A stretch of 46,710 bases of DNA, from IMG/VR virus record IMGVR_UViG_3300047277_000078, positions 1 to 46,710 of that record, one strand, 5' to 3'. The translations under genes were made by a program, and so were the position numbers. This DNA is from a virus. Its lineage: Duplodnaviria; Caudoviricetes. The notes below the pieces were generated by a model that searched no databases, was not told the origin of the DNA, and saw nothing but the letters and a program-made list of their open reading frames with translations. Below, piece by piece: positions 1 through 39,959 of the stretch. The first letter of the stretch is position 1, and each line of letters begins with the position of its first letter.

Positions 1-127
<127 letters not shown>

Positions 128-141
128 TTCGTGGGATAGCA

Positions 142-215
142 AGGTACTACGAGAGGTCCCTATTGAATGCGTATAAGTACCACGTACACATCGTAAAAAT
201 ATAAAATTTTTTTCA
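142..215 (+). other. Candidate lambda-type cos site (cosQ-like AGGTACT, 18 nt, cosN-like dyad, then A/T tract)
   Basis: AGGTACT-(18 nt)-ATGCG|TATAAGTACCA|CGTA...AAAATTTT parallels lambda GGGTCCT-(18 nt)-TTACG|GGGCGGCGACCT|CGCG...AAAATTTT. The phage encodes a GpA-type terminase. Inference only. Confidence 0.3.
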
Positions 216-413
216 GCAAACTGGGTTTATTAAGTAAAATTCATACATACTAAGAAAATATCCCAAAAAATCACTAATAAAAGTTGATAATCAGGTTATT
301 TCTATATACTATAGTTTAGAAACTTTATCTCTTATAAGTTATTTCTATATAATAGAGCAAAAGTCTACAGTTATAAGTATATTTACAAGAGGTATTTAAA
401 GTTACTCTGCTTC

Positions 414-680
414 TTATTTTACTTTTATAGAAAAAGTATATCCGTTACCGTCAGCTCCCCATACATGTATGTTATTTATTATATATAATTTATTAGTTAG
501 ATTTAATTCCTCAGCTATAAGTTTTATTTTTGTAAGTAACTTCTTGTTATTTTTGTATTTAAATAGAGTAAGTAGGGTTTTTTCTGGAATGTTTATATTA
601 TAGTTATCTTCTTGGCTGGTATATGGGGTAAGGAGATTAGATAGTATAGAGGTGGCTGTTGAGTTATTGTGTATAGTCAT
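414..680 (-). CDS. Hypothetical protein (88 aa)
   Basis: ORF co-oriented with the rep operon; no recognisable motif. Confidence 0.55.
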   Translation of the reverse strand: MTIHNNSTATSILSNLLTPYTSQEDNYNINIPEKTLLTLFKYKNNKKLLTKIKLIAEELNLTNKLYIINNIHVWGADGNGYTFSIKVK

Positions 681-792
681 AGGTTTATTGGTCGAGGTAG
701 TTAGGGTAAGCTATTAATGTTATGTATTACACTAATCTGGGCAAAGTGACCACCTTTTTAGATGAGATGGGCATTTTATTTTTAAATATTGC

Positions 793-1317
793 TTATAAAT
801 CAGTAATTTGTGTTATATATTTATACCCTCTGACGGTTCGCTTTAATATAGTATCTAGTTTACTTAATTCATATATAGTAAATATATGGTAATTTAATTG
901 CTTTCCTAAGGTATTTATATCTTTTAAAGTATGGTAAGTATCGTTAGAAGTATCGTTAGAAGTATCGTTAGAAGTATCGTTAGAAGTAAGTTTTTCTATT
1001 ATTGTAATTAATTCTAGTTTTCTACTTGTAGGTATAGAATCTTCCTGACTGGGTTTAATTACTATATTAACTTGTTTATCATACCAACCTATTGTATTAA
1101 ATTCCTCTGGATAGCGTTCTCTTACTAAATTAATTACAGTATTTATATTATTTTGTGCTGTTATTAAGGGTATATAGCCATTTTTAAACTGGTTTTTAAT
1201 TAAAGTTAGTTCTGGTCTTACATGGTTATATGCTTTCTTAGTACCATGTTTAGATTGAAGTATCTTAGCTATAGGTAATTTATTTAATAAATCTTCTCTA
1301 GTTACTTTATATGTCAT
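793..1317 (-). CDS. Hypothetical protein coupled to rep, containing a (TSND)4 repeat
   Basis: Start overlaps the rep stop by 11 nt; basic 174-aa protein. Confidence 0.75.
   Translation of the reverse strand: MTYKVTREDLLNKLPIAKILQSKHGTKKAYNHVRPELTLIKNQFKNGYIPLITAQNNINTVINLVRERYPEEFNTIGWYDKQVNIVIKPSQEDSIPTSRKLELITIIEKLTSNDTSNDTSNDTSNDTYHTLKDINTLGKQLNYHIFTIYELSKLDTILKRTVRGYKYITQITDL
936..988. repeat. 12-bp tandem repeat (AAGTATCGTTAG) x4.4, in frame
   Basis: Seen directly; encodes TSND repeats. Confidence 0.95.
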
Positions 1318-1972
1318 GACGAAACTCCACCCTGTCGCCTACTACTTTTGTTTTTAAATGTATTCCTAGTTTATTTCCTATATCTTTTAAGGTAGGTTGT
1401 AGTAGAGTTCTATTTAATTCTTTATATTCTTTATATTCTCCTTCTTGTACGTTAGCTTGTAGGCGTATATCGGCTTTAGTTATATAAAATACATCATTTT
1501 GGCCTAATTTCCATAAACTTTTATGTATTAGTAGGTATAGACTGTATCTTTTCTGACTTTTTATTGTACTTGTTATGGGATCTATAGTTATGAAAGTACC
1601 GCTACGCATATTTCCGCTTATATAAGGTATGAATTTTCTATTCCAGTTTATTTTTACTATATAGGGGTCATCGGTGTAGATAACTTCATAGACTAGGCTT
1701 GTATTTATTTTATAGCCATTAGATAGGTCTAGGGTAAAACTTGTATCTCTAAGTTTATTCGCTATTGATAATACTTGGTTATAGGATTTTTTTAAAGTGA
1801 TTCCGCAAAGTGAGGCGTAAAGATGTAAATCTACGGGTATATATTGCTCGTCAGTGAATTTTTCTCGTTGGTCGATCCGTAGCAAGCTGCTATTTATGAA
1901 TCGGCTGTCACATAAGTCTAAATCTTTGAATAATGGTATGGTGTCATGATGTAATTTTACGGTGTTACTCAT
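1307..1972 (-). CDS. rep: Plasmid-type replication initiator, Rep_3 (winged-helix) family
   Basis: The C-terminal IKSQKRYSLYLLI...ITKADIR...YKEYKELNRTLLQPTLKDI resembles Rep_3 WH2. Start reassigned from 2044 to ATG 1972 (MSNTVKL), preceded by RBS TAGGAG. Confidence 0.8.
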   Translation of the reverse strand: MSNTVKLHHDTIPLFKDLDLCDSRFINSSLLRIDQREKFTDEQYIPVDLHLYASLCGITLKKSYNQVLSIANKLRDTSFTLDLSNGYKINTSLVYEVIYTDDPYIVKINWNRKFIPYISGNMRSGTFITIDPITSTIKSQKRYSLYLLIHKSLWKLGQNDVFYITKADIRLQANVQEGEYKEYKELNRTLLQPTLKDIGNKLGIHLKTKVVGDRVEFRHDI

Positions 1973-2021
1973 TTTATCTCCTATTGGTGGAGGGGGTATT
2001 ATAGCAAAAAAGGTGTATGGA

Positions 2022-2051
2022 ATTCTAGCTGTTTTTATGCCCATTTTTCAA
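2022..2051 (-). promoter_or_regulatory. Putative sigma70 promoter of rep (TTGAAA-18-TAGAAT)
   Basis: Consensus-like boxes lying between the iterons and an inverted half-iteron. Confidence 0.45.
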
Positions 2052-2056
2052 TATCT

Positions 2057-2097
2057 GGAAAAAACCTACACCTTTATGGGAAAAAACCTACACCTTT
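2057..2097 (+). repeat. Iteron-like direct repeats GGAAAAAACCTACACCTTT x2, 22-bp period
   Basis: Copies at 2057-2075 and 2079-2097; inverted half-site AAAGGTGTA at about 2009-2017; adjacent to rep. Confidence 0.75.
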
Positions 2098-2261
2098 TTC
2101 GACTTAAGTTATTGAAATGTATTGGGAATTTCGTGTACTACTGTAGAGATAGAATCAAGAGCATAAGATCAAAAGCATATAAGTGAATAGGTGTGATAAG
2201 TGGCTGCGCCTGATAATATATATATATATATAAAGTAGATAATTAATTAATTTATATATCA

Positions 2262-2303
2262 GCACGGCGTATACTAAGCGTAGCGTGTAAAGCAGCCGTG
2301 CGG
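2262..2303 (+). other. Conserved hairpin element C1 (candidate ssi/sso)
   Basis: GCACGGC-GTATACTAAG-C GTA G-CGTGTAAAGCA-GCCGTGC-GG; inverted homologue at 3658-3710. Confidence 0.6.
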
Positions 2304-2498
2304 CATCACTTATTTATATACTCTACTATAATTAATAGATATATAAATAAAGTATATAAATAGATATATATATATATATAAATAGATATATAAAGCCTCT
2401 ACCGCTCTACGATATAAGTATAATTAATATAGATATATATATAATATATAATATAAGTAAGTAAGTAGTTAAATTAATATAGATAGATAGATAGATAG

Positions 2499-3130
2499 TA
2501 CCTCTCCCTGCTGTCGTTAATATAAATAGATATAATTAAGTAAGTAGATATAATTAAGTAAGTAAATAGATAGCTACTTTAATAAATAGATAATTGACGC
2601 TAAATTAGCTCTAAATAGGATAACTATAGCGATAAATAGGTAAATTTGACGAAAATTGTCATAAATTGACTTTAAATTTAAATTAATAGGACATTAGAAT
2701 GGAATTTTAGCTAGATTTAATGAGTAAATTTATAACTTATAGCTTACTTTAAATAGATAAATAAGTAAGTAGATAGATAAATAAGTAGAGCTGGCTTAGT
2801 ATAAGCGGATTGGGTTATATATAAATATAAATAAATAGATAATATAACTTAGAATAAATATAGATATAAATATATTAGTTATTAAATATATAATACCTCT
2901 CGCTACTCTCGTTAAATATATAGATGAAGTAATATATATATAGATGAATTAATAAATAATATATATAAATAGATGAATAATATATAAATAGATGAATATA
3001 TAGATTAAATATATATATTGCTTGGTACAAGCGGATTGGGCTATACTTTATAATATATAATACTGTACCGATAAATATAGATAAATTAAGTTAAATTATA
3101 GATAAATCTACCTCTCGCTACCCTCGATAA
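2499..3130 (-). repeat. Dispersed repeat A (TTAWCGA-S-R-GNA-G-S-GAGAGGTA), 3 good copies
   Basis: Copies at 2499-2520, 2894-2915 and 3109-3130; degenerate copies at 2395-2413 and 3309-3324. Confidence 0.8.
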
Positions 3131-3416
3131 TCAATTAAATATATAATTTAAGTATAAATTAAGTTAATATATATATATTAAGTATAAATTAAGTTAATAT
3201 ATATATATTAAGTATAAATTAAGTTTAAATATAGTTTATTTAATTATTGCTCAGAATGAGCGGATTGGGATATATTTATATTTAATAAACTTATAAATAT
3301 AAATTAAGTATCTCTGCGCTAGCTAATTTATGTAAGCAATTAATTACATTAAGTATAAATTAATTAATTAGATATAAGTTTATTATTTAATTATTGCCTA
3401 GAATAGGCGGATTGGC
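2794..3416 (+). repeat. Dispersed repeat B: 5-bp stem, GNA loop, then GGATTGG, 4 copies
   Basis: 2794 GCTTA-GTA-TAAGC, 3020 GCTTG-GTA-CAAGC, 3249 GCTCA-GAA-TGAGC, 3396 GCCTA-GAA-TAGGC; each followed by GGATTGG. Confidence 0.9.
3148..3225. repeat. 30-bp AT-rich tandem repeat x2.6
   Basis: TTAAGTATAAATTAAGTTAATATATATATA repeated. Confidence 0.85.
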
Positions 3417-3657
3417 CTGAATTAGCTTGAATATTATTTAAATTAAGTTATTTAATTATATATATAAATGATAATCGCCAATGCCTGAGATACTTCGTAT
3501 CACGCCATAATGCCGATTATCTAAGTAAATAAGTGAATATATATATTTATAATTTATACTCTAGTTATATATCTATTTATATTAAGTAATTACCGAGTGT
3601 AACGAGTATAATTACCAAAGAATTTAATTTATAATTATAATTTATATATATATAAGT

Positions 3658-3710
3658 CCGCTCATGAGCTGCTTTACACGTCACTACGTTCCTTAGTATA
3701 CGCTCATGGC
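3658..3710 (-). other. Conserved hairpin element C2 (inverted homologue of C1)
   Basis: Minus strand: GC-CATGAGC-GTATACTAAG-GAAC GTA GTGA-CGTGTAAAGCA-GCTCATG-AGCGG. Confidence 0.6.
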
Positions 3711-3903
3711 TAAATAAGTAAGTAGATAAATTAGAAGGAGGGGTTAGAGCCAAAGGCTCATAAATCATTGATTAATAAAGGTTAAAAAGTCGGCTATAAA
3801 AACTCTAAAGATACTTTACTCTTTCTACTTTTAAGACTAAAGAATTATTGACAGAACCAGTTAAAGGTAGATTGGTTATAGAAAGTTTAGATGGAGAAAT
3901 TGG

Positions 3904-3959
3904 TGAGTTTAGAGAGTAGATGTTGAATGAGTTTAGAGAGTAGATGTTGAATGAGTTTA
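3904..3959. repeat. 24-bp tandem repeat TGAGTTTAGAGAGTAGATGTTGAA x2.3
   Basis: Seen directly. Confidence 0.85.
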
Positions 3960-4146
3960 AGAGGCTAGGCTGGTTAGTAGGTGGATGGCGTAGTGAAGTT
4001 AAGGAAGCTTGGGAAATAAATAAAGTATTATAAAGAATATAAATATCTAAATAAATATATATATATAGTATAAAAGAACTAGCCGAACTAGAAATAGTAT
4101 CTATACGACTAGAAGTTTTTAAGGTTAATGGGGTAAGGTAGAGGTT

Positions 4147-4383
4147 TTAAGGTATTGAGGGTGAGGTTAGAGGGATAAAGGGTTGTTGTAGTATAGTCAT
4201 AACTTCTTCGTCAGTTTTACCTATAAAGTTATCTATTAAAACACCATCAACCACAGAATATCTAGGAGAAAAAGTAGATTGCCCTTCGGCTAAGTCAAAA
4301 ACAGCTAGATAACCAAGTAATGTATCCGTACCATTACTATCTATTGTAATTAAATGATTGTCTTCTAATTGGTATAATTTCAT
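4147..4383 (-). CDS. Small protein after the fibre gene, possible fibre chaperone
   Basis: Position directly downstream of the fibre gene; acidic 78-aa protein. Confidence 0.55.
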   Translation of the reverse strand: MKLYQLEDNHLITIDSNGTDTLLGYLAVFDLAEGQSTFSPRYSVVDGVLIDNFIGKTDEEVMTILQQPFIPLTSPSIP

Positions 4384-4398: not shown

Positions 4399-6723
4399 CT
4401 AAATTGATTGATTTATTGCGAACTCTAAACAAACCATACGCTTAAATGGTATATTTTTTACTGCATCATAGTCATTACTATTACATACTAAAGTTATTCT
4501 ATTATTTTCTATTAATGTAGCATTATAAGCTGAACTAACTGTAGTATTTATTGGTAAAGATATTGTAGAATGGTATTTAACAACACCTAAAGGGAAACAC
4601 TGAAATAACGCATAGCTATTATTGGTAACAGCTACAGTAGTTGCTGCTGTAGGGTACGCTATAGATATAAGTACCCAGCCACTACCTGTAACTAATATAC
4701 TTGTACCTATTGTTAGATTTAATAGCTCACCATTAGGATATGTAAGACCAGAAAAGTCTAAACCACCCTCAGTATTATTTTTATAAGAAATTATACCTGA
4801 ATAGGCTGCGCTAGGATTACCATGAGCAACAAGAAAACATTCCCTAGAATTATTAGGGAAAAAATCAGGTAAGATCGACCAAATACCTGTAATATTTTTT
4901 GCTGATGTAGTATATGTATTTAATGTTATAGCAGTAGAAGTAGTGGTAGTATCTATATACATATTTATAATTTTAATATAATTATTTAATCCTTGAAATA
5001 TATACTGAAATTTCCCTGGCCCTATAGAACGTAAATTATGTCTAGTAGGCATTTGCCCCAATGTTAATGTAGTATTTAATGTTATAGCATTAGCACCATC
5101 TAACTGTTTAGATGTTAAAAGTTCATGTGATAAGGTATTACTTGGTAAACAACCTTTTACACAAATAGCCCTCATAAAGTTGCCTGTTTGTGCTGCTACA
5201 ATCATACAAATATCAGGGTCTATATCTGGGACAATAGTAATAACTTTAGCTGTACCTAAATATAATAAAGTAGCTGCTTCTAATACTAGAGTAGTAACTA
5301 CAGACGTAGGTGGGCTAACAGAAGGTGTTATAACAAATTTGGTAATAGCTATATCTGAGGCTGTTGCTACTGTAGTTTGTACTACGACAAAACTAGCTGA
5401 AGTTATTGGTGTAAAATCTAATGAACCTAGTGTACCAAGTAAAGCTGTAGTAGCTGCCGTACCTACACTAATAACCCCAGATATACTTATAGTTACCACA
5501 GAAAAAGATACTATAGTAGCTGCAACAGTTGTTTTTGTAACTACAAATAACCCCGGGCTTTCTGCTAGTTGTTTAACTCCAGGAGAACCTTCAATACCAG
5601 TTCTACCAGAAGCAGTAAAAGCCGATAAACTAGAACTAAGGGTAGTAATAGCTGTTCCTGTGATATACAATGTATATATATCCGTACCAGTAAAAATACC
5701 TATAACATTAGGAGCCACTTTAGCAACTAATTGTATTACTGAATTAGCCGGAGTAAATATAAATGGTGAAGCTTGATTTAACGCTGGTAGGGTATCAAAG
5801 GCAGGCCCGTCATCAGCCCTATTCTCATGTACAAGACATATAAAAGTACTATTAGCGGTTAAAGCTAAAGAAAATATTCTTGAATCATCTAATTTTACAG
5901 TATATACAGGATTAACTCCAATAACATTATTATTTAAAATAGCCTCAGAATTTGGGATAAGAACTGAATTTTTTATAAATATAGGTTGTAAACCAGTACC
6001 AGAAATAGCCCAGTCACCTTCAAAATCTACTAATCCAGCTAATACAGCTCTACAAGTACCACCGGGAAGAACTGCTACAACTAATTTACCAAAAGTAGTT
6101 CTAATGGCTATAGTATACTCAGATGCGTTATGTATTGTAAAACCATCAGAATAACTTAAAGGTGCTACACCAGCAGGAAGAAATACAGAAGCATAGCTCC
6201 TAGCAGCAGAGATCATTATAGTATTAGATGAGTTAGCTGCAAGGAATAGATCAAAAACTGCTAGATCATTAACTTGATTATACGATACGTCACGCCATAA
6301 AGCTATGGTACCGTCATTAGATACTATTTTATCTTTAGTAGTTTCACTTATTAGAGGTACACCAGTACCCCCAGCAGCTAGTATTAACCAAGAATCTGCA
6401 TCATTAAATAAATCGTCAGCTATACTTATACTTCCTGATATAAATACCTTTTGTGCAATCCAGGAACTAGATCCATCTGTTACAATATCCTGTGGTAAAT
6501 ATTCTTTACTTGGTATCCAAGAGCCAGTCCAGCGCAATCCGGCGGCCATTAGTGACCAATAGACAACATTAGTAGGATGTATCCCTGAACTAACAGATAT
6601 ATTAGTATAACAATAGGAATTTCCGCCATAAGTTACTATATCATTATAGCTATAAGTAACTGCACCAGAATACTCTCCTAAAAAAGTAAGTCTAAGTTTT
6701 CCTAAATCAATTATTTGTGCCAT
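4399..6723 (-). CDS. Tail fibre / receptor-binding protein with N-terminal carbohydrate-binding-like repeats
   Basis: Two GxY/W...Y..xDIVTxGG/SxSY/W...W repeats typical of phage fibre N-termini, followed by a beta-rich body. Confidence 0.7.
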   Translation of the reverse strand: MAQIIDLGKLRLTFLGEYSGAVTYSYNDIVTYGGNSYCYTNISVSSGIHPTNVVYWSLMAAGLRWTGSWIPSKEYLPQDIVTDGSSSWIAQKVFISGSISIADDLFNDADSWLILAAGGTGVPLISETTKDKIVSNDGTIALWRDVSYNQVNDLAVFDLFLAANSSNTIMISAARSYASVFLPAGVAPLSYSDGFTIHNASEYTIAIRTTFGKLVVAVLPGGTCRAVLAGLVDFEGDWAISGTGLQPIFIKNSVLIPNSEAILNNNVIGVNPVYTVKLDDSRIFSLALTANSTFICLVHENRADDGPAFDTLPALNQASPFIFTPANSVIQLVAKVAPNVIGIFTGTDIYTLYITGTAITTLSSSLSAFTASGRTGIEGSPGVKQLAESPGLFVVTKTTVAATIVSFSVVTISISGVISVGTAATTALLGTLGSLDFTPITSASFVVVQTTVATASDIAITKFVITPSVSPPTSVVTTLVLEAATLLYLGTAKVITIVPDIDPDICMIVAAQTGNFMRAICVKGCLPSNTLSHELLTSKQLDGANAITLNTTLTLGQMPTRHNLRSIGPGKFQYIFQGLNNYIKIINMYIDTTTTSTAITLNTYTTSAKNITGIWSILPDFFPNNSRECFLVAHGNPSAAYSGIISYKNNTEGGLDFSGLTYPNGELLNLTIGTSILVTGSGWVLISIAYPTAATTVAVTNNSYALFQCFPLGVVKYHSTISLPINTTVSSAYNATLIENNRITLVCNSNDYDAVKNIPFKRMVCLEFAINQSI

Positions 6724-7029: not shown

Positions 7030-7374
7030 TTATAATAGAATTTGTTCTAAGTCTACGATATAGGAAATAACAAAATCTGCACTAGTTTCTAAAGAACTAT
7101 TTACAAGAATTATATCATCAGGAAGTAAAATTAATTTACCTTTTATAACGTCTATATTAGTTCCCACTTCTACAGGACATTTTTTAACAATATTAATTGT
7201 ACTTTGACTACTAACTCTAAATATAGTAACAGTTACATAAATAAGCATGTTAGCTACATTAGCTACATTTATTCCAGCACAAATAGCCGAAATAACCGAA
7301 GGAGGTAGCGTTGTAATTATAGTAGGCTCTACCCCAACTGATATTAAACTATCGCTTTTATATGTTATAGTCAT
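7030..7374 (-). CDS. Small beta-rich putative structural protein
   Basis: GINVANVAN...VTVTI...KLILLPDDIILV pattern seen in phage fibre-associated proteins. Confidence 0.65.
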   Translation of the reverse strand: MTITYKSDSLISVGVEPTIITTLPPSVISAICAGINVANVANMLIYVTVTIFRVSSQSTINIVKKCPVEVGTNIDVIKGKLILLPDDIILVNSSLETSADFVISYIVDLEQILL

Positions 7375-7375
7375 A

Positions 7376-7615
7376 TTAAGACATAAAATAAGTGAATAAA
7401 GGGTCTACCCCAGTATATGTTGGCGGATTGTATTTATTATATTCTGAAATAGCAAAAGTAATAGTAGCTGGAGACATAGACCGTAGTAGCTTTGACGTAC
7501 CCATAGACATTTCAGCGTTAGTAGCTTCTTTTGGTAAACTATCCTTAATATCCCCATCTAAAGGTAATTCATTTATAGTACCATCAATCTGGACTAAAGG
7601 TCTATACGAGGACAT
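7376..7615 (-). CDS. Small fibre-associated protein
   Basis: RPLVQIDGTINELPxxD and ATNAEMxxGT...MSP motifs typical of fibre repeats. Confidence 0.6.
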   Translation of the reverse strand: MSSYRPLVQIDGTINELPLDGDIKDSLPKEATNAEMSMGTSKLLRSMSPATITFAISEYNKYNPPTYTGVDPLFTYFMS

Positions 7616-14292: not shown

Positions 14293-17200
14293 TTATACCC
14301 TATGAACTGTAAGTGAAAACCAAGGAAACTCTATCATAGCATTGGAAGTAACACCAACATTGTTGGTACTAACTAAAGTAAAGGTCAATGTAAAATTTGT
14401 AGTTCCTGCTATAGTTGGGGTAACTGTGGCTTTTGTTATAAATCCCCCTTTAGTTCCCGTAGGTATTACAGGGAAATTTGCCATAGTGTAAGTTGCTATT
14501 AGAGTAGTTGGTGTTGCAGTAGTAGCATTAGAAGTTATACCTACATCTACAGAAGTAGTACCACCAGTACCACTGGCCCCTACTAGAGTAAACCCTGCTT
14601 CTACAATTATATCTTGTTTATTACCATCTATGCTTAATACTAAACTTATATTAGTAGACGTATTAACGCCTTTTACAAATGTTTGCTGTCCCATTGTCCC
14701 TGGTGCAAAATAGGTAGATAGAACAGTAGTCGTAGTTAATTGTCCAGCAGTAGCAAAAGCACCTAACCCTGCTACATTTGCATTAGGTAATGCTGTTATT
14801 GCGTGAGTTACTGCGCTGCCGCCAGATAATACACCAGCAGCACTCAACGATATTAAATTATTTAATATAGAGACAGTAGGGTTATTCGCAGCAGCAGCTA
14901 TATTAGTCTTAGAAGCTAAAGTAGTACCAGAAGCCGCGCCAGAAACTACTGTACTAATAGCAGTACCACTCATAGTAGCAGTAACTGCGGCTTTACTCCA
15001 AGTAGGCCCACGCTGTATTCCAGCAATATAGTCACCATTAGATGATGATTTACATGCAGCAACACCAATACAATAACTTTTATCTACCGCTACACCTATA
15101 AATTGATAGTATGTACTAAAAGTTGCTGTACCCTTATATAATATTGGTACTGATACAGTCGAAGACCCGGCCATACCTGGGTAATTATATGGAATAGCTG
15201 CTACATAATAAGCACCATCTTTTATATACAGTATAAAAGAGTCAGCTTCTATAGTTCCTTGTGTGTATGTCCAAGCTATAGTTATATCTACTAAACCTAA
15301 AGCGGATACTGGACTAATAGTCATAGAACCTAATATAGGCAAAGCCCCATTAGGGGCAGCCTCAGTTGTAAAAGACGCTATAGTTGCCGCTACGTCAAGG
15401 GCAGCACTAGCGTTAGAAACCACTGTAGCTGCTGCAATACCAGCGATAGTTGCAGTAATATTTGGTACACCTGCGGCTTTAGTCCATCCAGTAACAATAG
15501 CTGTACTTTTAATACCACTTCCAGATAAACGAGAAGCTGTAATACCTACTTGATATGCTTTATCTATAGGAACACCTAATACTTTATAAGTATAGGCTTT
15601 ATTTAACTTTGTTGGATCAGCAGCTATCCCAGCAACTAATACTGTACTAGCTATAGTAGGTACAACTAAACCCTCTACAGCATATAAGGTAAAAGTTTCA
15701 GCCGATACTCCTGTAGCAGGTTGTTGGTATGTCCAAGTAAGTGTTACATCTACAGTCCCTGTAGAAGAGGCAGAACTTTGGGATACAGAAGATAACACTG
15801 GTAGTACACTAGGTATAGCTACAGAAGTATAGCTATCAACAGAGGTAACAAAAGTAGAAGAAATGCCTGCCCTAATCCAAGGGCCATACAGTAAACCATA
15901 TATAATCCCAGAAGATGTTTGTCTACTTGGGCAGATACTTACACTATAATTACCTTCAATAGGTATTCCTGTAACAGTGTAACTTCTAGTATTACCGTCT
16001 ACTACTGCTAAAACAGGGGAACTAGCGGTAGGCACTGAAGTAGGTATAGCTGTAGCATTAACTATACAATACAATGTAAAACTATCTGCTTTGTATGTTC
16101 CTTGTGTATATGTCCAAGATAGTGTTACATTTACATTACCAGTTCCTGTTTGTGACGCATTGATTGTAGTGTTATTTAATAATGTTATAGAAATACCACT
16201 AGAAGGGGCAGCATTAACAGTAAAATTAGGTTCATTACCATAAATATAATCATTAACTATTTTACCTAAGGCTTCTTTCTGTATATAATAGTTTTGGGCA
16301 TAAGTTCTAAAATCTATACCAGATTGTGCTGTTATAGCTGTTTCTACATTTATATTAGTATTATTTATATAAATAGGGACTGTAGTATTAGTTAATGGAT
16401 TAAGCCAACTACCTGCAACACCCGTATTTAAGAAAGAACCTAAATTACCTAATGCAGTAGCATATGTACTAGGAATCGCAATAGAATAAGATAAACAAAG
16501 ACTTGTTAAATTTCCGCGCTCTAATATTATATTATCCCATTCTTTACGTATAATAGCTTTTTCAAGTGTACTAATTACATTATCATTTACCATAGCATCA
16601 ATACTAACACCAATAGCAGCAACATTATCTGTAAGCGTTTTTGCTGGTACCCCATTAACTTGCGCAGTATCTTTAGATATATTTAATGACGTTTTATCTG
16701 AAGTAGCTACCCAAACATTATCATTAGGCGCAACACCAGCTTTACCGTTATGTATAAATGTTACGCCAGAGGTACTTTGAAAATATATATCACCTTTAGT
16801 TCCTGTTGTAGTTACAAGAGGGTCAGATGTACCAGAAGAGTAAATTGTATATGAGGCACCTGCTTTCCAAACATTAGCTATCTTAGTATATAAAATACCA
16901 GTATCAGTGCTATAACATAAATCACCATCTACACCAAGACTAACTAAAGGGGTACCTAAGCAAGTATAAGAATTATTATTAGACGCTTGTATTATCCAAT
17001 CAACAGCACGCCTAGCGTAAGTTCTTCCTAAAGATGTTGCATAACAAATATCTCCGACAGAACTATTAGCCGGTACAGATAATGTATTATCAGTAACATC
17101 TATAGTTGGTGCATTTAGTTGAACTGTAATAATGTTTTTAGTAGCATTATCTACAGGTTTCTTTCCGGTAGTGGTGGTTATACTTTCCCAAATAGCTTTC

Positions 17201-20200
17201 TTAGCTGCTTCGTCCGCAATACCTTGGGTTATTGCAGCTCTAGCCACTGTTTGATTTTTAGTAGCTATACGAAAATCTATTCCTATATCCTGGGAATTTA
17301 CTATAGTAGGAATACCAGTATTAGTTACTGTTCTTATATATGTAGGAGAAATAAAATATGGTATTACTGGTGGAACAGCTAAAGTAGCGTCTAATACCCA
17401 AGTAGTTGCTGTTAGTGATCCTGATTGTAAAAAGTTACCTAAAACAGTTAGTGTGGCTATATATGTTGTATATAAAGAAGATATATTATATGCAGTAGTT
17501 TTTGTTTTTAAGACCGTTAATTCAGCTAGGGAGGCATCCCAATAACCTCTAATTGTTTGTAGCTCGTCTAGCGATATAAATTTATCTGATAAAATATTAT
17601 CTAATCCTGCTACTACATTATTAGCCGTTTCTAAGGCGATAGCTGCTTCAGTGGCAGCGGTAGTTGCAGCTAATGTAAGTTCAGAAGCCGAAATACCATT
17701 AATATTAGCTGTTATATTAGCAGCACCTCCCTGCCTATTCCAGCCATTTGTACTAGAAACAGGGCCAGTACCCGTAATAATAGCAGTAGATTTAATTCCA
17801 TCATTAGATAAACGAGAGGCTATAATACCAACTTTGTAGCTCTTATCTGCCGGAACACCAATAACTTTATAAGAGTATGTTTCTTGTAAATTAATACCAG
17901 AAGAATTTACTGGTGTAACATCTAATTTTATCCCATCAATTAATATAGCTGAATCTATCGTAGGCTGACTAATATCAGTTAAAGTGACTTCGATTGCATA
18001 TAAAGTAAAAGTTTCTGCTTTAACTACCCCTTGTAGATAATTCCAAGTTATAGTTATATCAACAGTACCTATTGTACTACTATTAGCTACTATAGCATTA
18101 CTAGATGGTACAGAAGGTACATTACTTGGTATAGCAATAGATGTGTAATTTTTAGTGGATAATGCGGTAATATTAGCCCTAGCCGATAAAAAACTTGTAT
18201 TAATAGCTCTCCAACTAACGCCCACAGCAGAATTAACATCTATACCTTTATTAGTTACATTACCCAAATAAGTGTCTGTTAGAAAGTATGGTGTAGTTAT
18301 ATTAGTAATTGCTGTTATTGACGGTATTGCCCCAACTTTTGTACACCATGTAGCTATAGCAGGACTTACATTAGTTTCAGTTAGTATATTACCTGTATTT
18401 AAGAAATTACCTAATTGGTATAATGCAGTTAGATAGGTTACTTTTATTGGTGTTAGATATGTACTAGAACATTGTGCTTCTAAATTAGCCTTTTCATTTA
18501 CGTATGTTCCCCAGTTACCTTTTATAAGCTGCAATTCTAATAAAGAAATATTTCCATCAGATAACATGGTGTCTAATGAGGAAGCAGCATAAGCTATGGT
18601 TGCTACACTTACAGCATTTTTAGCAACTAAAAAATCTTTATAGGCAGCCCTATAGGTAGAACCTGTATTATCATCTATATGTAAACCAGAATTAGTTACG
18701 AGCTTTATAAAAGTATCAGATATAAAATTAGGTACTACTAATATTACAAGCGTAGTTGTAGTTACACCATTTAATGTAGTAGACGTATAAGTACACCAAG
18801 GAGTAGGTATGCCTGTATTAGAATTTGCAAGAGGATCACCCGTATTTAAAAAATTACCTAAATGGTAGAAAGCACTTAAATAGGCTAATCGTTCTGCTGG
18901 AAGTAGGTTATCAACACATTGTTTTTCAATACTAGATTTTTCTGTTGTAAATACATCCCAGGCAGATCGCATCATCTGTAGTTCAGGTAGTGAAATATTT
19001 TTATCCGATAACATATTAGTTAAAGCTAATACAGAGGTATCTGATACTGCTTTAATAACTTTAGACCTCTCAGTATAATAGTTAGTAAATACACTTCTAA
19101 AACTTTCTGGTGTATTAGGTGCTGTAAGTAAAGTATCTTTAGCTAATTCTGTAGCATCTTTTAGCCATAAAGGGGGTGTTGCTGTTACTAACCATACCCA
19201 AGCAGTACCACCATTTAAATAGGTAGCTACAGCTAATAAAGCTGTATAGTAAGCAGCAGAAGATACACTAGCATAAGATGCTTGTGCTTCAATTACTGTT
19301 TTTTCATTATATATAATATTCCATTCTTTGAGTAGCGCAGACTTTTCTATAGGACTAACATTAGCATCATCCGCCATTTTAATTATAGCTTCATTAGCTA
19401 ATTTAGCTTTTGCGTCAGCTACGCCGGACATACCTTCTAATAAAGTAATTTTAGCTTTTGTACATGTAGCTAATAAAGCTTTACATGTGGTAGCAGTAGT
19501 AGCAGATACTATTAATCCTGTATTATCTGTAACTACGGTAGCACCATTTACGATATTACTAGAGGTAGGAAATTTAATATAAGAGTCATTAAGATAATAA
19601 GGAACATTAGATATTATTTGATTAATATTGGTAATTACATTTGAGGTAATAGGCCAAACTATCCACGTATTTTCTGCCTTGCCGTTATTAAAGAAATTGC
19701 CTAAATCCCTGATGCTACTAATGTAATCTGCTGCTAAGACAGGTATATTATATATAGCTAATGCTTTAGGATATAAACTAACAATTTCTGATATTATTTG
19801 ATCCCATATAACCCTAATATCCTGTAATTCACTTCTTATAAGTATGTTATCTGCTAAATCATTAGTTAAGGTTGCCTGTGCGGCATAACCAAAAGTATAT
19901 GCGTCAGTTATTTCTGTGGCTAGTGCTGAGGTTAAATCGGTATCAGCTACTTTAGCTGTAGTACCTAAAATACCTATTGTATTACTTAAAGGATAGTAAG
20001 AAGAATAGTTTCCTGTAGTATCGACGGAGCGAATCCAGAAATAACCAGATAAGCCAGCAGCTAGTTTATGAAAACTATAAAAGTTACCACTAGATATTGC
20101 TACTTTGACTGCTCCAGGTACGGTAGGATTAGTAGTAGCAGCAAAGTTAGAAGTAAAATTAAACCATATCTCTGTTTCTTTTAAATCTACACAAACTGTG

Positions 20201-23200
20201 TTATCTGTATTAGTAGTAGGATTTTGCCAACCTAAACTGACTATACTAAAACCAGAGGTAGCAACTAACGCTGTTGGGGCATTAGGAGCAATAGAATCCC
20301 CATTAGCTATAATAGTAACTTCATTTGTATATAAACTATGTGCATCAACCAGATTAGCTCTAACTTTAACCTTATATGTCTTACCAATTAGAATATTAGA
20401 ACTTTGTATAAATAATTCACTGGTATCTAAATATGTATAAACTAATGGTAGAATATTTGCATCAGCTATACCTAAAGTATACGAAGATACTTTATCTAAG
20501 ACCGCTTCTTTAGTGCCTACGGCAGGAGTTGTACTAGGAGTCCACGTAGCACGTAAAGTCGTAAAAGTTTCACCAGATATTTGCTGTGCTTGTGTCTGTG
20601 TTACTACTAAATCTGTAGGTATATGTGGTGTTAAAAATACACCTGTAGTAGTATCTTTAGCTAGAATTAAAAGAAATTCTGATGACCAATTTAGTCCTAT
20701 ATCTGAGTAATTATCAGCTAAAGCTATTTTTACGTAGTAAGTGCCGTATGTCGGTGAAGTTATAGTAAAGCCGTCATGATATTGACTAGCTATGCCTTTA
20801 TAAAACCAAGTAGCAGGTACTGGATCAAAATCAGGGGTAACACTAGCGGCTAATATAAATTCTGATATATCGGATGGTATAGTACATGTAGCTAAATTAA
20901 CTATTATAGCTTTATCAAAACCTGTTATTAACGCTTCCGTTAAAACTATAGGAGCAGGATTAGTAAAATTAACTGCAACAGGAAGGCTAGTTGATCCTGT
21001 TATATCCCTAGAATATATTTTTAATTTAAACGCTCTAGGTGTTGTACCAAAATCAGATTTTATTTGACTTTTAGGGTATTGTGTAGTCACCCCTTTATAA
21101 TTAGGAGTTTTTAAATTATAGTTAATAATATAGTCATTATACATAGTAAGACCGTCCTCACTATATACTTCTACTACATAATCCTTTAGTTTATCTGTTT
21201 TATCATCATTTTCTATGGGATATTCCCAACTAATAGGGGCATCTTGAGAACTAAAAATAGTATCTAAGGTATCTGTTACAAAAATATTAATAGGAGGGAG
21301 TAGTGAGGAACTCATATCTAATTTATAAGTATAGGAACCTACAATACGACTAGATTTCATCTTAAACATATTTACTGCTTGTAAAGATACTTCATAAGTA
21401 CCACTAATAGCATTTTGTATGTCAAAAGTATTATCTTTTATATTTTCTACATAAGTAAAATTCTCTTTGTGTTTTCTATAACCTAAAGTATAACTATCTA
21501 TAACTGTATTAGCATCCCAGCTAACTCTTAAAACAGAGGCACCTACTACGCCATTAGTTCTATGACCTTCTACTATAGTTAATCCTGTAGGAGTAGATAC
21601 TGTAGTAGTTATTTTAGTATATATAGGGGGGTCAACAATAATGCCGTATTCAATAGCAGCATATTTAGCTGGATCATAAAATACAGCAGAAATAGTATAA
21701 ACTCCCCGGCTAGATTCTGTTATATTTCCTATTCTAAATTGTCTGGCTACTAATGTACCTACTTTATAAATATAATACTCATGGTTAGTGTAGTCACCGC
21801 TAATAGTACCCGCGACTGTAACAGAGGTATAAGTACCTGTAGATTGTAATAAAGGTATTTCTATAATATTATCATAAGTAATATTATTTACTGCTAGTAT
21901 CCAACCAGAGCCTGTTAAAGATACGGGAGTATCTAAAATAATAGTAGTACCGATAGAGCTGACTATACGCCCACCAAAAAATTCTGTATCAGAACTAATA
22001 AAGTCGTTATCCATGATTGATACGACATCACCTACGGATAGATCAACTATATTTAAACTCATACTAAATGCTACTTGATCTGCTTGGTGCATAGCAGTAT
22101 ATAAAGTCCATTTTGCTAATCTTCTTGCGGCTGTTTCAGTAACTACACCAAAAGCTACTGTATCCGACATGATAAAACCAAATTTAGCTATACCGGCATT
22201 ATCTTGCTCACTTATTGTCCTAGGTAAATAATCATTTGTTCGTTCATTAAAAGTTACATTAGCTACAGTAGGTCGGGTTGTACTAGAATCGGTAGAGTAA
22301 CTAAATGCACCTTGTATTACATTTGAATTATTAATAACTTTACTTGGTAAAGTAGGTCTATCTTGTATTAATGTTATAGTATCGCCTGTAATAGCTATAT
22401 TAGCTCTCATAGTAGAAGCTACTGCATGTAATAATTGCCAAGCGTCTTGTTGTGTTTGTATTACAGCATTAAATGTATATCTAGTTTCCATACCACCAGA
22501 AGCAGTATGACCATCTACTAAAGTAGTACCATCAGGAATTAGTTGATCGCAATAAACCGCTGCATCATAGAAAGCCCATTTATCTACTAGAAGTTCAGTG
22601 TTTAAATAACTTTTTACCCCATATCGCTCATTAACTAATAGATCATATAAACACCAAGCAGGGTTATCCGTCCAAGCGTATTTAAAAGTACCGTTCCACA
22701 AACCAGTATACGTTTTTGTTATAGGAGAATAGTTACTAGGAATCCGTATAATTAAGCCTTTTACATCATAACCTCTTGCAGGTATAGAATTACCTACTGA
22801 TTCTGCTGATACTGTTACACCAACAATAGCAGTATCTGGATAAGTTTCTATTTGATCTACAATTTGTGTCTGACGAATAACTTTAAAGGCACCTTTATCT
22901 TTTACAGTATCCATAGGATCATTAGAAGTACGCCTAACTCTATATGCCCAGCCACCTAATTTATTTACATCTGGATTAAGTAGTTTAAAGTCCATTTCAA
23001 AAGAACTTACTGCCTTACCTTCAATAACTTGTACCAATACCTCTTTAAATGTGCCGTTAGGAAGTGACCGCGTATCCATAGCTATACTAACAGTAGAACC
23101 ATGTAAATCACCTGGGGGTATAACTAATTTAGTTAGCCCTTCAAAGAAATTTAAAGTTACAATAACAGCGTCTACATTTGTTTCTGCTATAGTACCTGTA

Positions 23201-24942
23201 TAAGGTACAGCAGTACCTGGATTAGCTGCCATATATAAAGATAAATATTGGTCAGATAAGTTCTTATATGTCGCTTGCGCATCAGCATCGGCCGTCCAGG
23301 GCCTATTCATAGGAATACCATATCGAGCTATATGTGCTACATTAAATATACCTAATACTTTTTCCCATATATCATCGTCACTTTGCCCACTTATGTAGGT
23401 AGTAGGTATAGCTCCTATATTACTAGAGCCATTTTTTACAGTAGAAGCATCTATAGCAGTTATAGATTCTATATCAGTAAAGCCTGGAATAGCTGTTTGA
23501 TCTGGTAAACCTAGTCTAATATCTAAAAATACATTAAAGAAATTATCTGTCCCATCTACATTTTGTACTCTAGTATTATTAAAATATACTCCTTGTAGTG
23601 TAGAAGATAATGCTTCAATCGTATTTTGTCCAATTTCTATGTTTTTAATTCCTGCACTTCTACTAGCCTGAGATGCTATAAAATATAGACCTCTACCTGC
23701 TGTAGTTAACTTAGTACGTATAGTTGCGCCATTTCTTTTGTAGATTACAGAGGTAGCACTATATTCTATAGAAAATACAGTTTCTAATGTAGTAGATGCT
23801 TGACTTGTTCCTTTATGTACACCAGATTCATATATACTATAAGTAGAATCATCATTACAACGTATGCCAAAATCAACTGAATTAAAGGCAGCCAAAGAGG
23901 CGGCAGCAAGAGCAGCTTCACTTACTTGTCCTGTAATAGTATTAAAATTAGAAATATTAGAGGTAAGCCCAACTATTTGTACTTTATCTACTGTACTAAA
24001 CTGCCAACGAATTACTAAACTTCCTATAACGGTAGTAGGGCTATAACAACCTGCATCATAAGTTTCATAGACTGACTGAGGACTTTTAATACAACCAGAT
24101 AATGTAGTTAAACCAGTATCTGAGAAGGACATTAAGCCAGGTTCTTCCGTAGTAGCTGACGTAGGTAAAATTGTCATTACTGTAGGTGAAGAACTAATAG
24201 GAACTAATGTATAAGTAGTAGGGTGAAAAACTTTACCGATAGTTCCCCCACTCAATCCGACTAAACCTTCAATAGGACCTTCAGAAAGTATTTCTAATGT
24301 TCTAGCTACAGCACTAGATTGTATTGTATTAGGGTCTTCTACTGGGGCGCGATTAGAGGCTGTTTTCCCCCCACCACCATTATGAACTCTAGTCCAATTA
24401 GTACCATCACCAACAAAGTAAGTATGTTGTGGAATAACTTCAAAGTTATATACTTTATAACTATCTATTAAGCTATCAAAAGGTGTTATAGCTATAGAAG
24501 TAATAGTTACAGTATCTCCGTCTAAATTTACTAAAGTATCTCCTACTTTAAATACTTTAGCTTCTGTATGCTCATTAGTTTCTTTATTATAAAGTGCATG
24601 ATTACCTGTACAATCAGGTAGAGTATAAGTGAGTCCTTTAGTATCTAATAAAGTAAAGGTATAAATATCTTCACCATTTACCTCAGCTTTATCATGTATA
24701 TATGTTTGTGTAACTAAACCATGTTCTAAATTACCATACCTATCATAAGATATAACTAAATCACCTGAACGAACTTCTTGTATTGGTGTATAACCTTTAG
24801 CAGTACGTACTAAAGTATTATAAGCAAAACAACTACCACCACCACCACCACTACCAGAAATAACATCAGCACCTTGTAATGAAATTAAAGTATTTAATTC
24901 TGCTTCTGTTTCTAAATAGTTTAAACCATAATACTTTATCAT
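14293..24942 (-). CDS. J: Giant tip attachment / central fibre protein J (3549 aa) with an N-terminal Hint domain
   Basis: LSEGPIEGL, YPDTAIVG, W.GTFK.AWTDNPAWCLYDLL..ERYG, DKWAFY.AA.YCDQL and ARRLAKW.LYT are lambda gpJ motifs. Confidence 0.95.
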   Translation of the reverse strand: MIKYYGLNYLETEAELNTLISLQGADVISGSGGGGGSCFAYNTLVRTAKGYTPIQEVRSGDLVISYDRYGNLEHGLVTQTYIHDKAEVNGEDIYTFTLLDTKGLTYTLPDCTGNHALYNKETNEHTEAKVFKVGDTLVNLDGDTVTITSIAITPFDSLIDSYKVYNFEVIPQHTYFVGDGTNWTRVHNGGGGKTASNRAPVEDPNTIQSSAVARTLEILSEGPIEGLVGLSGGTIGKVFHPTTYTLVPISSSPTVMTILPTSATTEEPGLMSFSDTGLTTLSGCIKSPQSVYETYDAGCYSPTTVIGSLVIRWQFSTVDKVQIVGLTSNISNFNTITGQVSEAALAAASLAAFNSVDFGIRCNDDSTYSIYESGVHKGTSQASTTLETVFSIEYSATSVIYKRNGATIRTKLTTAGRGLYFIASQASRSAGIKNIEIGQNTIEALSSTLQGVYFNNTRVQNVDGTDNFFNVFLDIRLGLPDQTAIPGFTDIESITAIDASTVKNGSSNIGAIPTTYISGQSDDDIWEKVLGIFNVAHIARYGIPMNRPWTADADAQATYKNLSDQYLSLYMAANPGTAVPYTGTIAETNVDAVIVTLNFFEGLTKLVIPPGDLHGSTVSIAMDTRSLPNGTFKEVLVQVIEGKAVSSFEMDFKLLNPDVNKLGGWAYRVRRTSNDPMDTVKDKGAFKVIRQTQIVDQIETYPDTAIVGVTVSAESVGNSIPARGYDVKGLIIRIPSNYSPITKTYTGLWNGTFKYAWTDNPAWCLYDLLVNERYGVKSYLNTELLVDKWAFYDAAVYCDQLIPDGTTLVDGHTASGGMETRYTFNAVIQTQQDAWQLLHAVASTMRANIAITGDTITLIQDRPTLPSKVINNSNVIQGAFSYSTDSSTTRPTVANVTFNERTNDYLPRTISEQDNAGIAKFGFIMSDTVAFGVVTETAARRLAKWTLYTAMHQADQVAFSMSLNIVDLSVGDVVSIMDNDFISSDTEFFGGRIVSSIGTTIILDTPVSLTGSGWILAVNNITYDNIIEIPLLQSTGTYTSVTVAGTISGDYTNHEYYIYKVGTLVARQFRIGNITESSRGVYTISAVFYDPAKYAAIEYGIIVDPPIYTKITTTVSTPTGLTIVEGHRTNGVVGASVLRVSWDANTVIDSYTLGYRKHKENFTYVENIKDNTFDIQNAISGTYEVSLQAVNMFKMKSSRIVGSYTYKLDMSSSLLPPINIFVTDTLDTIFSSQDAPISWEYPIENDDKTDKLKDYVVEVYSEDGLTMYNDYIINYNLKTPNYKGVTTQYPKSQIKSDFGTTPRAFKLKIYSRDITGSTSLPVAVNFTNPAPIVLTEALITGFDKAIIVNLATCTIPSDISEFILAASVTPDFDPVPATWFYKGIASQYHDGFTITSPTYGTYYVKIALADNYSDIGLNWSSEFLLILAKDTTTGVFLTPHIPTDLVVTQTQAQQISGETFTTLRATWTPSTTPAVGTKEAVLDKVSSYTLGIADANILPLVYTYLDTSELFIQSSNILIGKTYKVKVRANLVDAHSLYTNEVTIIANGDSIAPNAPTALVATSGFSIVSLGWQNPTTNTDNTVCVDLKETEIWFNFTSNFAATTNPTVPGAVKVAISSGNFYSFHKLAAGLSGYFWIRSVDTTGNYSSYYPLSNTIGILGTTAKVADTDLTSALATEITDAYTFGYAAQATLTNDLADNILIRSELQDIRVIWDQIISEIVSLYPKALAIYNIPVLAADYISSIRDLGNFFNNGKAENTWIVWPITSNVITNINQIISNVPYYLNDSYIKFPTSSNIVNGATVVTDNTGLIVSATTATTCKALLATCTKAKITLLEGMSGVADAKAKLANEAIIKMADDANVSPIEKSALLKEWNIIYNEKTVIEAQASYASVSSAAYYTALLAVATYLNGGTAWVWLVTATPPLWLKDATELAKDTLLTAPNTPESFRSVFTNYYTERSKVIKAVSDTSVLALTNMLSDKNISLPELQMMRSAWDVFTTEKSSIEKQCVDNLLPAERLAYLSAFYHLGNFLNTGDPLANSNTGIPTPWCTYTSTTLNGVTTTTLVILVVPNFISDTFIKLVTNSGLHIDDNTGSTYRAAYKDFLVAKNAVSVATIAYAASSLDTMLSDGNISLLELQLIKGNWGTYVNEKANLEAQCSSTYLTPIKVTYLTALYQLGNFLNTGNILTETNVSPAIATWCTKVGAIPSITAITNITTPYFLTDTYLGNVTNKGIDVNSAVGVSWRAINTSFLSARANITALSTKNYTSIAIPSNVPSVPSSNAIVANSSTIGTVDITITWNYLQGVVKAETFTLYAIEVTLTDISQPTIDSAILIDGIKLDVTPVNSSGINLQETYSYKVIGVPADKSYKVGIIASRLSNDGIKSTAIITGTGPVSSTNGWNRQGGAANITANINGISASELTLAATTAATEAAIALETANNVVAGLDNILSDKFISLDELQTIRGYWDASLAELTVLKTKTTAYNISSLYTTYIATLTVLGNFLQSGSLTATTWVLDATLAVPPVIPYFISPTYIRTVTNTGIPTIVNSQDIGIDFRIATKNQTVARAAITQGIADEAAKKAIWESITTTTGKKPVDNATKNIITVQLNAPTIDVTDNTLSVPANSSVGDICYATSLGRTYARRAVDWIIQASNNNSYTCLGTPLVSLGVDGDLCYSTDTGILYTKIANVWKAGASYTIYSSGTSDPLVTTTGTKGDIYFQSTSGVTFIHNGKAGVAPNDNVWVATSDKTSLNISKDTAQVNGVPAKTLTDNVAAIGVSIDAMVNDNVISTLEKAIIRKEWDNIILERGNLTSLCLSYSIAIPSTYATALGNLGSFLNTGVAGSWLNPLTNTTVPIYINNTNINVETAITAQSGIDFRTYAQNYYIQKEALGKIVNDYIYGNEPNFTVNAAPSSGISITLLNNTTINASQTGTGNVNVTLSWTYTQGTYKADSFTLYCIVNATAIPTSVPTASSPVLAVVDGNTRSYTVTGIPIEGNYSVSICPSRQTSSGIIYGLLYGPWIRAGISSTFVTSVDSYTSVAIPSVLPVLSSVSQSSASSTGTVDVTLTWTYQQPATGVSAETFTLYAVEGLVVPTIASTVLVAGIAADPTKLNKAYTYKVLGVPIDKAYQVGITASRLSGSGIKSTAIVTGWTKAAGVPNITATIAGIAAATVVSNASAALDVAATIASFTTEAAPNGALPILGSMTISPVSALGLVDITIAWTYTQGTIEADSFILYIKDGAYYVAAIPYNYPGMAGSSTVSVPILYKGTATFSTYYQFIGVAVDKSYCIGVAACKSSSNGDYIAGIQRGPTWSKAAVTATMSGTAISTVVSGAASGTTLASKTNIAAAANNPTVSILNNLISLSAAGVLSGGSAVTHAITALPNANVAGLGAFATAGQLTTTTVLSTYFAPGTMGQQTFVKGVNTSTNISLVLSIDGNKQDIIVEAGFTLVGASGTGGTTSVDVGITSNATTATPTTLIATYTMANFPVIPTGTKGGFITKATVTPTIAGTTNFTLTFTLVSTNNVGVTSNAMIEFPWFSLTVHRV
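24379..24831 (-). other. Hint (intein-like) domain, 151 aa, C38 to N188 of gpJ, no homing endonuclease
   Basis: Block A CFAYNTLV, block B TGNHALY, blocks F/G VYNFEV..QHTYFV...VHN; the +1 residue is Gly. Confidence 0.92.
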
Positions 24943-39086: not shown

Positions 39087-39959
39087 ATTAAACCCTTTTT
39101 GTTGTGTTGATGAAACTGTTGTAAGTATATCTTTCTTAGTAACCGGAATTAAAATATCATTTACAGAAGAAATTATACCATCTATAAGATTAAGAGCTAG
39201 AGCTTCTTCTCCTAATACTGTGTTACCTTTTAAATTAAGAATACTTTCAATACTTAATAATGGTCTGAACTTATTAATAGTTTCATTCATTATAGTATCT
39301 AATGTACCTAACATTTTTACTTTATCTGCTAGACCTTCGGCAGTAATACCTTCATGTGGATTCCCTATAGCTTTTTCTGACTTACTTCTAATAATAGTAT
39401 AAGTTAATCCGGCTTTAGTATCGGCAGCAGTAGCATCTACTAGAGTCATGATAACTCCCATAGAACCAATGATAGAAGAAGTTGTAGCATAGACTTTTTG
39501 TGCGGCAGAAGCTAATACATAAGCAGCAGAAGTAGCCATACCATCTGTAACAGCTATAGTTTCAATACCATGTTTAGAGGGTAATTCTGCTATAAATTCA
39601 GCTAGACCAAATAAACCAGATACTTCTCCGCCTGGGGAATCTATGTAGAATACTAACTTAGTAGCGCCAGCTTCTATAGATGAAATTACTTGTCGTGTTA
39701 TAGCTTCATAAGAGGTAGAGCCAGAATCTCCGCCACCATTTTTAGATACAAGCGAATCAAATACTCTAATTACAGAAGTATTAGACGAAGCTATTGTAGT
39801 ATCTCTATTAGAAATTACTGAATCATTATTAACTAAAGATTCTATTTTCTCTCCTGCTAAAATTTTCAAAGTAATATTAGAAGATAAAATATCTAATTTA
39901 CATTGTGAGATAGCAAGAGGTGTATTCAATAATCTTGTTAAAACTCTAGGATAACCCAT
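38697..39959 (-). CDS. C: S49 capsid maturation protease with C-terminal scaffold
   Basis: IDSPGGEVSG, ATSAAY.LASAA, GSMGV, A.ALNLID.I. Confidence 0.93.
   Translation of the reverse strand: MGYPRVLTRLLNTPLAISQCKLDILSSNITLKILAGEKIESLVNNDSVISNRDTTIASSNTSVIRVFDSLVSKNGGGDSGSTSYEAITRQVISSIEAGATKLVFYIDSPGGEVSGLFGLAEFIAELPSKHGIETIAVTDGMATSAAYVLASAAQKVYATTSSIIGSMGVIMTLVDATAADTKAGLTYTIIRSKSEKAIGNPHEGITAEGLADKVKMLGTLDTIMNETINKFRPLLSIESILNLKGNTVLGEEALALNLIDGIISSVNDILIPVTKKDILTTVSSTQQKGFNMNVEDLQAEVIKLGAELTKAKAEMGLAEAKAKMSEQGRILGIIEASTTFGTPLTAAVNFIKLGANVDMAVSAFETIKEHSQIASHVDVAVSAITSTVSASDFPSSAKSAMQTLLDMKAAGVANPSKGLL

Follow-up and report, generated by a model that had tools for sequence, protein, structure and literature searches.

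Four mini-hairpins with covarying stems, GNA loops and an invariant GGATTGG tail lie in the non-coding tract beside the iteron origin of an uncultured freshwater phage. The DNA analyzed, referred to here as the window, is a viral record of 46,710 nucleotides that is estimated to be 48% complete and whose contigs were detected in freshwater metagenomes. The array is real and lineage-specific, and it looks selected. The reading preferred here, held at a probability of about 0.4, is that its units are reiterated single-strand initiation signals for the host primase. The position beside a Rep_3 origin, which the sequence-only reading had given to putative ssDNA recognition sites, is confirmed, and an ssDNA signal stays the best interpretation at that probability. 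The hairpins belong to a larger non-coding module, and the surrounding segment is likely a collapsed inverted repeat.

Hairpin Units and the Non-coding Module

The elements of the module are as follows.

2262–2301, + strand: element C, first copy, a long hairpin with a 7-bp closing stem round a conserved core
2394–3326, + strand: repeat B, five copies at about 2394, 2499, 2894, 3109 and 3309
2794–2813, + strand: unit A1, GCTTA-GTA-TAAGC, 5-bp stem, GTA loop, tail GGATTGG
3020–3039, + strand: unit A2, GCTTG-GTA-CAAGC, closing pair A-T changed to G-C, GTA loop, tail GGATTGG
3249–3268, + strand: unit A3, GCTCA-GAA-TGAGC, fourth pair T-A changed to C-G, GAA loop, tail GGATTGG
3396–3415, + strand: unit A4, GCCTA-GAA-TAGGC, third pair T-A changed to C-G, GAA loop, tail GGATTGG
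3470–3521, − strand: element D, a long hairpin capped by GATAC-GAA-GTATC
3588–3612, − strand: repeat B, an inverted diverged copy
3663–3708, − strand: element C, second copy, with core and fold as in the + copy (z −2.4 on the − strand)

The tail (GCGGATTGG) has exact + strand matches at 2805, 3031, 3260 and 3407, and the units are spaced by 226, 229 and 147 bp, exactly the four GNA hairpins with an invariant tail that had been described at first sight. All 20 stem cells (five pairs in four units) are paired. Relative to A1, the three other copies have a single base pair exchanged as a whole, each at another stem position and with no unpaired difference within the stems; three of the five pairs are thus altered on both sides and none on one side alone. 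All units keep the outer two pairs, G and A in the loop, and the 7-nt tail, and one of the six columns 5′ of the stem is invariant. The pairing pattern was equalled in 8 of 500 column shuffles, slid controls pair at 20–40%, and when three copies were each given two stem substitutions under a neutral model, 396 of 2,000,000 trials ended fully compensated. Between 2050 and 4200, five perfect GNA hairpins (stem of at least 5 bp with at least two G/C; the copies are not mutually independent) compare with 0.08 on average in 1000 shuffles, none of which had more than 2. These results support the view that the A stems are probably selected for structure, as the sequence-only reading had held on the ground that every stem change is compensated and every loop is GNA. 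The covariation evidence is firm but small, because it consists of three events among four paralogous copies.

The closing pair of the A stems is A-T in three units, G-C in one and C-G in none. Exceptional stability is established for GCGNAGC-type hairpins, which have C-G closing (PMC13037366), a feature that no A unit has and that element D has. Of the first description, the DNA-type GNA loop is supported, and the exceptional stability is not supported for these hairpins.

Elements B, C and D, together with the large inverted repeat that encloses the region, were overlooked in the first reading. Repeat B is an unpaired, pyrimidine-rich tandem 9-mer with the consensus CTCTCGNTA twice; three of its copies alternate with the A units, and a half copy lies at 147. 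The + copy of element C folds with z −1.1 when taken alone, and it is the covariation between the two copies that gives it weight: five of the seven closing pairs differ between the two, and all are still paired. Element D folds far better on the − strand (z −7.1) than on the + strand (z −2.7). Read 5′ to 3′, the order is C, B, B, A, B, A, B, A, B, A on the + strand and C, B, D on the − strand, and the two sets face one another with their ends 55 bp apart. On the + strand the module spacers contain 18 C in 853 bases.

Strain Variation and Searches for Related Arrays

Contigs of related strains were compared from six runs (X1, X3, X5, X6, X7 and X9). Unit A4 is covered by X3, X5, X6, X7 and X9, units A2 and A1 (the latter up to 2812) by X7, and unit A3 in X1 alone, which is the same strain as the window. 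None of the 21 substitutions listed at 2507–3832 falls inside an A unit; this conservation is weak and not significant, because only about 1.4 substitutions are expected over the covered units (an estimate). Element D has one change (3478, X7), at an unpaired position of its minus-strand fold. Repeat B has one substitution (3120, X7), which alters the CTA of that copy. The B copy at 3309 is 10 bases shorter in the window than in X3 and X5, where insertions at 3316/3318 restore it towards the consensus; this longer third B of X3 and X5 is without CTA. The module spacers are slippage-prone, and among the indels listed they differ between strains.

The sequence-only reading had named the absence of homologous arrays from related genomes as one result that would refute it, and that result was obtained: none was found in relatives by pattern, blastn, descriptor or covariance model. 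The five terminase relatives contain no such array. A descriptor search of 177 sequences (1.1 Mb) returned the four known copies alone, a covariance model run on 36 sources (541 kb) gave nothing above 17.5 bits beyond its four training copies, and blastn of 2200–3800 against phages and plasmids gave short AT-rich noise alone (best E 0.04). The exact-tail scan of IMG/VR gave one single match, unpaired and coding, and no array; its five two-copy matches are all GC-rich chance occurrences or gene repeats. Within 56 of the 64 collection parts of the JGI metagenomes, 120 tail loci were found, all single and none in an AT-rich array. Of these loci, 41 are fully paired against 15 expected, mostly GC-rich REP-like palindromes and duplicates, and two had a second relaxed match, both GC-rich.

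The Rep protein had no match in GenBank phages and two weak matches in plasmids, and none was confirmed in GTDB genomes or in single-protein IMG/VR scans. The nearest Rep is that of the P0002 cluster (55%), whose contigs lie outside the array comparison. The DNA common to the window and the relative G006 comprises the Rep genes and 64 bp of iterons alone, where the two are 86% identical; the hairpin array sits outside these 64 bp, at 0.7–1.3 kb from the iterons. In G001, G006 and G008 the array slot holds small genes, and RGTCGCY repeats also occupy it in the relatives. One GNA hairpin lies within 600 bp of the iterons in two of four relatives, with unrelated tails (chance 6% in G006 and 3% in G008), and none does so in G001 and G012.

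Proposed Priming Signals and Competing Explanations

A free stem, a fixed loop frame and a fixed 3′ tail make up the build of single-strand priming signals. The proposed course of events is that Rep would open the iteron origin and that a fork or displaced strand leaving rep would expose the + strand, on which the nearly C-free AT spacers would stay unfolded and protein-coated and the hairpins would stand out. The stem would be recognized by its shape, because its inner pairs vary freely, and the tail by its sequence. The host primase would then start a primer within the fixed tail, from which copying would proceed back across the hairpin; primers from the A tails would run leftward and the primer on the side of element D would run rightward, back to back. 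DnaG_N and Prim-Pol (PF09250) profiles gave no match in any of five records, including G008, whose sequence closes at both ends on its repeat, and the window (about 48% complete), and priming would therefore fall to the host.

Full compensation together with the invariant 3′ tail favors the priming reading. The GNA loops of the A units are all on one strand, and for elements C and D the better fold is on the strand that the priming layout predicts. In polarity and spacing the A units agree with two proven priming hairpins, those of G4 and ssiA. All four A tails have T at +5 and G at +6, an agreement that was spotted post hoc and has a chance of about 3–6% for one ancestral unit. The main point against this reading, above all others, is that the array is absent from relatives that share the Rep and the iterons. 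The weak closing pairs, none of them C-G, also count against it, as do the lack of T at +5 in element D and the CTA of repeat B, which is altered in X7 and missing from the longer third copy of X3 and X5. The single-strand signals known to us occur once per strand, against four copies here.

Among known systems, the array probably most resembles the IncQ ssi sites and the G4 origin, and it belongs to neither. The ssiA and ssiB sites of RSF1010 likewise consist of a GAA-capped hairpin with a 3′ single-stranded tail, and they lie on both strands beside an iteron origin, as the module does here (PMC8567376; PMC4434180; PMC13037366). In ssiA the hairpin spans nt 7–27 and RepB′ primes at T32 within GTG, five bases past it (PMC8567376); the A units share this spacing, as their T for templating is likewise the fifth base after the hairpin and precedes a G. 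The papers describe ssi as 40 nt long and present once on each strand; it has GTG and a 5′ hexamer that is read by sequence, and its primase is encoded by the plasmid, whereas the A units are four 20-nt units with TTG and without a conserved 5′ arm; the GNA-capped hairpin and the 3′ priming tail of the IncQ ssi are thus present, and its 5′ hexamer, its GTG and its single site per strand are not. The G4 complementary-strand origin (DnaG and SSB) requires the host primase only, and its annotated primer begins at a T that lies five bases beyond the base of the hairpin and has G after it, as found in all four A units. GNA or GNNA mini-hairpins are present at the G4 origin and at ssiA and bind SSB poorly (PMC13037366). 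The G4 origin differs in having CTG, a longer stem and one site, against TTG, 5-bp stems and four copies in the array. Three gamma-proteobacterial DnaG enzymes use CTG and CTA, and the triplets given for the enzymes tested (CTG, CTA, TTA and CCC) do not include TTG (PMC2978363). The A tail triplet, being neither CTG nor CTA, counts against a DnaG reading, with the limit that the known triplets may not fit this host.

The array does not fit the form of PriA sites or of N4 promoters. The earlier suggestion of a link to PriA rested on AAGCGG, which does occur in two copies, as had been noted. In the PriA site of phiX174, this motif opens the 12-bp stem of a large structure, whereas in the array it is found in two of four units, closes a mini-stem, varies, and is followed by no long stem, so that the link is not upheld. 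The promoters of the N4 virion RNA polymerase have, like the A units, a 5-bp stem (5–7 bp as the range compared) and a GNA loop, but they have C-G closing and share sequence 5′ of the stem, whereas the constant part of the A units is 3′; C-G closing and a conserved 5′ start region are both missing from the array. No virion RNA polymerase gene was found among the 45 ORFs of the window, which include the whole structural block.

An unlikely alternative, though the likeliest of the rivals, is that A and B are duplex or cruciform sites for two proteins, serving either as a centromere in partition or as an accessory site when the inverted repeats recombine, with the hairpins extruding under supercoiling in the AT-rich tract. 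The unpaired tandem 9-mer of B, present in both orientations, is typical of duplex sites, A and B alternate regularly with AT spacers of about 100 bp, and the array lies inside a repeat whose flanks appear to invert. However, a plain duplex site needs neither changes in both arms (three of three) nor a fixed loop G and A, and ParA, ParB and recombinase are absent from the 45 window ORFs, although about half of the genome may be missing. It is less probable still that the array is a recent lineage-specific expansion without an essential role, in which a single unit and its spacers were duplicated and stem changes were each repaired by template switching, so as to look like covariation. Such an expansion would fit the absence of the array from the relatives examined, the slippage-prone and indel-variable spacers, and the non-significance of substitution-free A units between strains (about 1.4 expected). 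Against this, the spacers are far diverged but all four units keep the 7-nt tail unchanged, element C has five compensated pairs in copies on opposite strands, and three palindrome repairs of 5-bp arms that leave no mismatch would presumably ask a great deal.

Hairpins that protect phage DNA or serve as decoys while it is transiently single-stranded, acting as nuclease stops, SSB-free marks or bait for a defense sensor, are judged similarly doubtful: GNA mini-hairpins withstand exonuclease and SSB (PMC13037366) and the relatives carry small early-type genes in the array slot, but the closing pairs here are weak, just four units stand 150–230 bp apart, and protection needs no fixed tail. The least probable alternative is a non-coding RNA of the sponge type, with four protein-binding hairpins and GGA directly after each stem. 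Repeated small hairpins with a constant GGA-containing linker suit this possibility, as do weak + strand promoter-like matches at 2424–2700. These matches are, however, no commoner than in shuffles, and a terminator search found none; the 20 stem cells contain no G-U pair, the GGA sits outside the loop, two of the four units refold differently under RNA parameters, and Rfam gave no match at gathering, nor any up to E 1 over 100–4250. No RNA data set is listed among those that contain the record, which has no bearing on expression.

Iteron Origin, Probable Inverted Repeat and Genome Layout

The priming reading is set in a genome whose layout may outweigh the array in importance. Its features are as follows.

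121–4195, no strand: inferred collapsed inverted repeat of about 4.2 kb, containing the array and the Rep3 origin
793–1317, − strand: Rep partner ORF, adjoining the Rep3 gene
1307–2044, − strand: Rep3-family initiator (Rep3_N scores above the Pfam cut-off)
2059–2121, no strand: two iterons, 22 bp apart, and an IHF-like site
3720–4195, + strand: island rich in G (GC skew +0.6) that forms the outer edge of the inverted repeat
4196–46710: lambda-type virion block with gpA terminase, portal, capsid, tape measure, tail tip J and lysis genes

Left of the virion block lie a 2.1-kb non-coding tract, the two iterons, the Rep3 gene and its conserved partner ORF. The Rep3 gene with upstream iterons at 22-bp spacing constitutes a Rep3 iteron origin; an inverted iteron-like copy lies at about 2006–2020, and the site beside the iterons is called IHF-like by its resemblance to the IHF consensus. 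The initiator belongs to a phage-linked subfamily. The partner ORF's N-terminal segment (about 80 aa) is helical and common to G006 and G007, and weaker in G003; a fold search returned generic helical bundles only (best Z 7.2), from which no function emerged. A 12-bp tandem repeat (TSND ×4) at 936–987 inside this ORF differs in length among strains. A second + strand G-rich island lies at 600–730, and the skew of both islands is 0.6–0.66; where genes run into them, the strand of those genes is rich in C, and comparable islands occur in G001, G006 and G008. The islands are possibly Rho-dependent terminators shielding the origin. A hairpin with an AAA triloop, GAGCC-AAA-GGCTC at 3747–3759, has a counterpart in G006 (GAGGC-AAA-GCCTC, 4532–4544) with one pair swapped and at a different distance from the iterons.

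The stretch 121–4195 is likely a collapsed inverted repeat. It joins position 4196 and also the reverse complement of the right end of the window: an X1 contig exits the window at 4195 and continues as the reverse complement of that end, and this junction ends the last ORF (T5orf172 family) with a stop nine codons on. The depth of the Rep contigs relative to the virion block is 1.8× in X1 and 1.7–2.1× in X7. Pieces of the AT-rich tract are shallower than both the Rep contigs and the virion block (4–33 in X1), which may be an effect of composition. Both copies of the repeat would then carry the hairpin module. At the left end, about 30 TTTA repeats (1–127) end the contig; the X1 contig enters them, and the X5 and X7 contigs stop short of them, at 182 and 227. 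This end may be a microsatellite break or a physical end, and the replication block or a physical end may lie beyond. Telomere-type palindromes at 121–260 were ruled out because this part folds no better than shuffles.

The repeat signature is found in three of five self-compared relative contigs (G001, G006 and G008); G003 and G007, which gave none, both end just upstream of Rep. In G006, an inverted repeat of 7,751 bp that includes Rep surrounds the replication genes, and the start of G001 matches 40,612–40,725 in reverse. The start of G008 matches 33,946–34,071 and its end matches 39,542–39,633 in reverse; the sequence thereby closes into a circle made up of the virion block, the 5.7-kb repeat, the replication block and the inverted repeat, in which the repeat with the iteron origin separates structural from replication genes. 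An inverted repeat that carries the iteron origin and parts virion from replication genes thus appears to be family-wide (the window, G001, G006 and G008), and the repeat of the window faces the virion block in the opposite orientation to those of G001 and G008. The replication blocks of the relatives, annotated from 82 ORFs with small ORFs and virion genes set aside, encode a family A polymerase, a ligase, UvrD- and Dda-like helicases and a Sak4-like protein.

The four-part plastid genome shows an assembly-graph signature like that of the window's repeat. In the jumbo phage Matilda, which has invertible segments between long inverted repeats (bioRxiv 10.64898/2026.10.21.760668), both ends of the unique block likewise join one end of a double-depth repeat, but that genome is linear with two unrelated repeat pairs, which are not known to hold an origin or hairpin, whereas here there is one repeat with an iteron origin. 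The open-access literature yielded no description of the hairpin unit or of a phage origin in a plastid-type repeat.

These features may be drawn together into a freshwater phage family with lambda-type virion genes, its own polymerase, ligase and helicases, no primase, and a plasmid-type origin in two inverted copies in the plastid fashion. Replication would proceed by strand displacement, the repeats of the displaced strand would pair to give a duplex origin, and in this lineage the hairpin with GGATTGG would be a new class of host-read priming signal. As a whole this picture is speculative and seems unlikely to hold in every part. Few designs of single-strand initiation signal are known, and the 20-nt unit with free stem and fixed tail would, if true, be the smallest. 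Short-read assembly collapses the origin-carrying repeat in four genomes, and the genome sizes and completeness of the family are therefore misjudged.

Along the outer margin of the repeat lie three to four RGTCGCY repeats in G006 (7354–7605), G008 (39551–39625) and G001 (42766–42821), and none in the window's own repeat; those of G006 and G008 match the reverse complement of GGCGACC, which occurs in the left cohesive end of lambda. Because these phages carry a lambda-type terminase, the repeats may be packaging sites. The replication block of G008, a genome without a recognized primase, encodes a 662-aa DUF8224 protein (L157, 6676–8664) with 45% identity to hypothetical proteins from phiCbK-like phages of Caulobacter. 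In the virion block of the window, a 3549-aa ORF considered as a virion polymerase was ruled out, as it is tail protein J; this tail-tip protein (14293–24942) has an N-terminal HINT domain (PF07591, residues 44–188).
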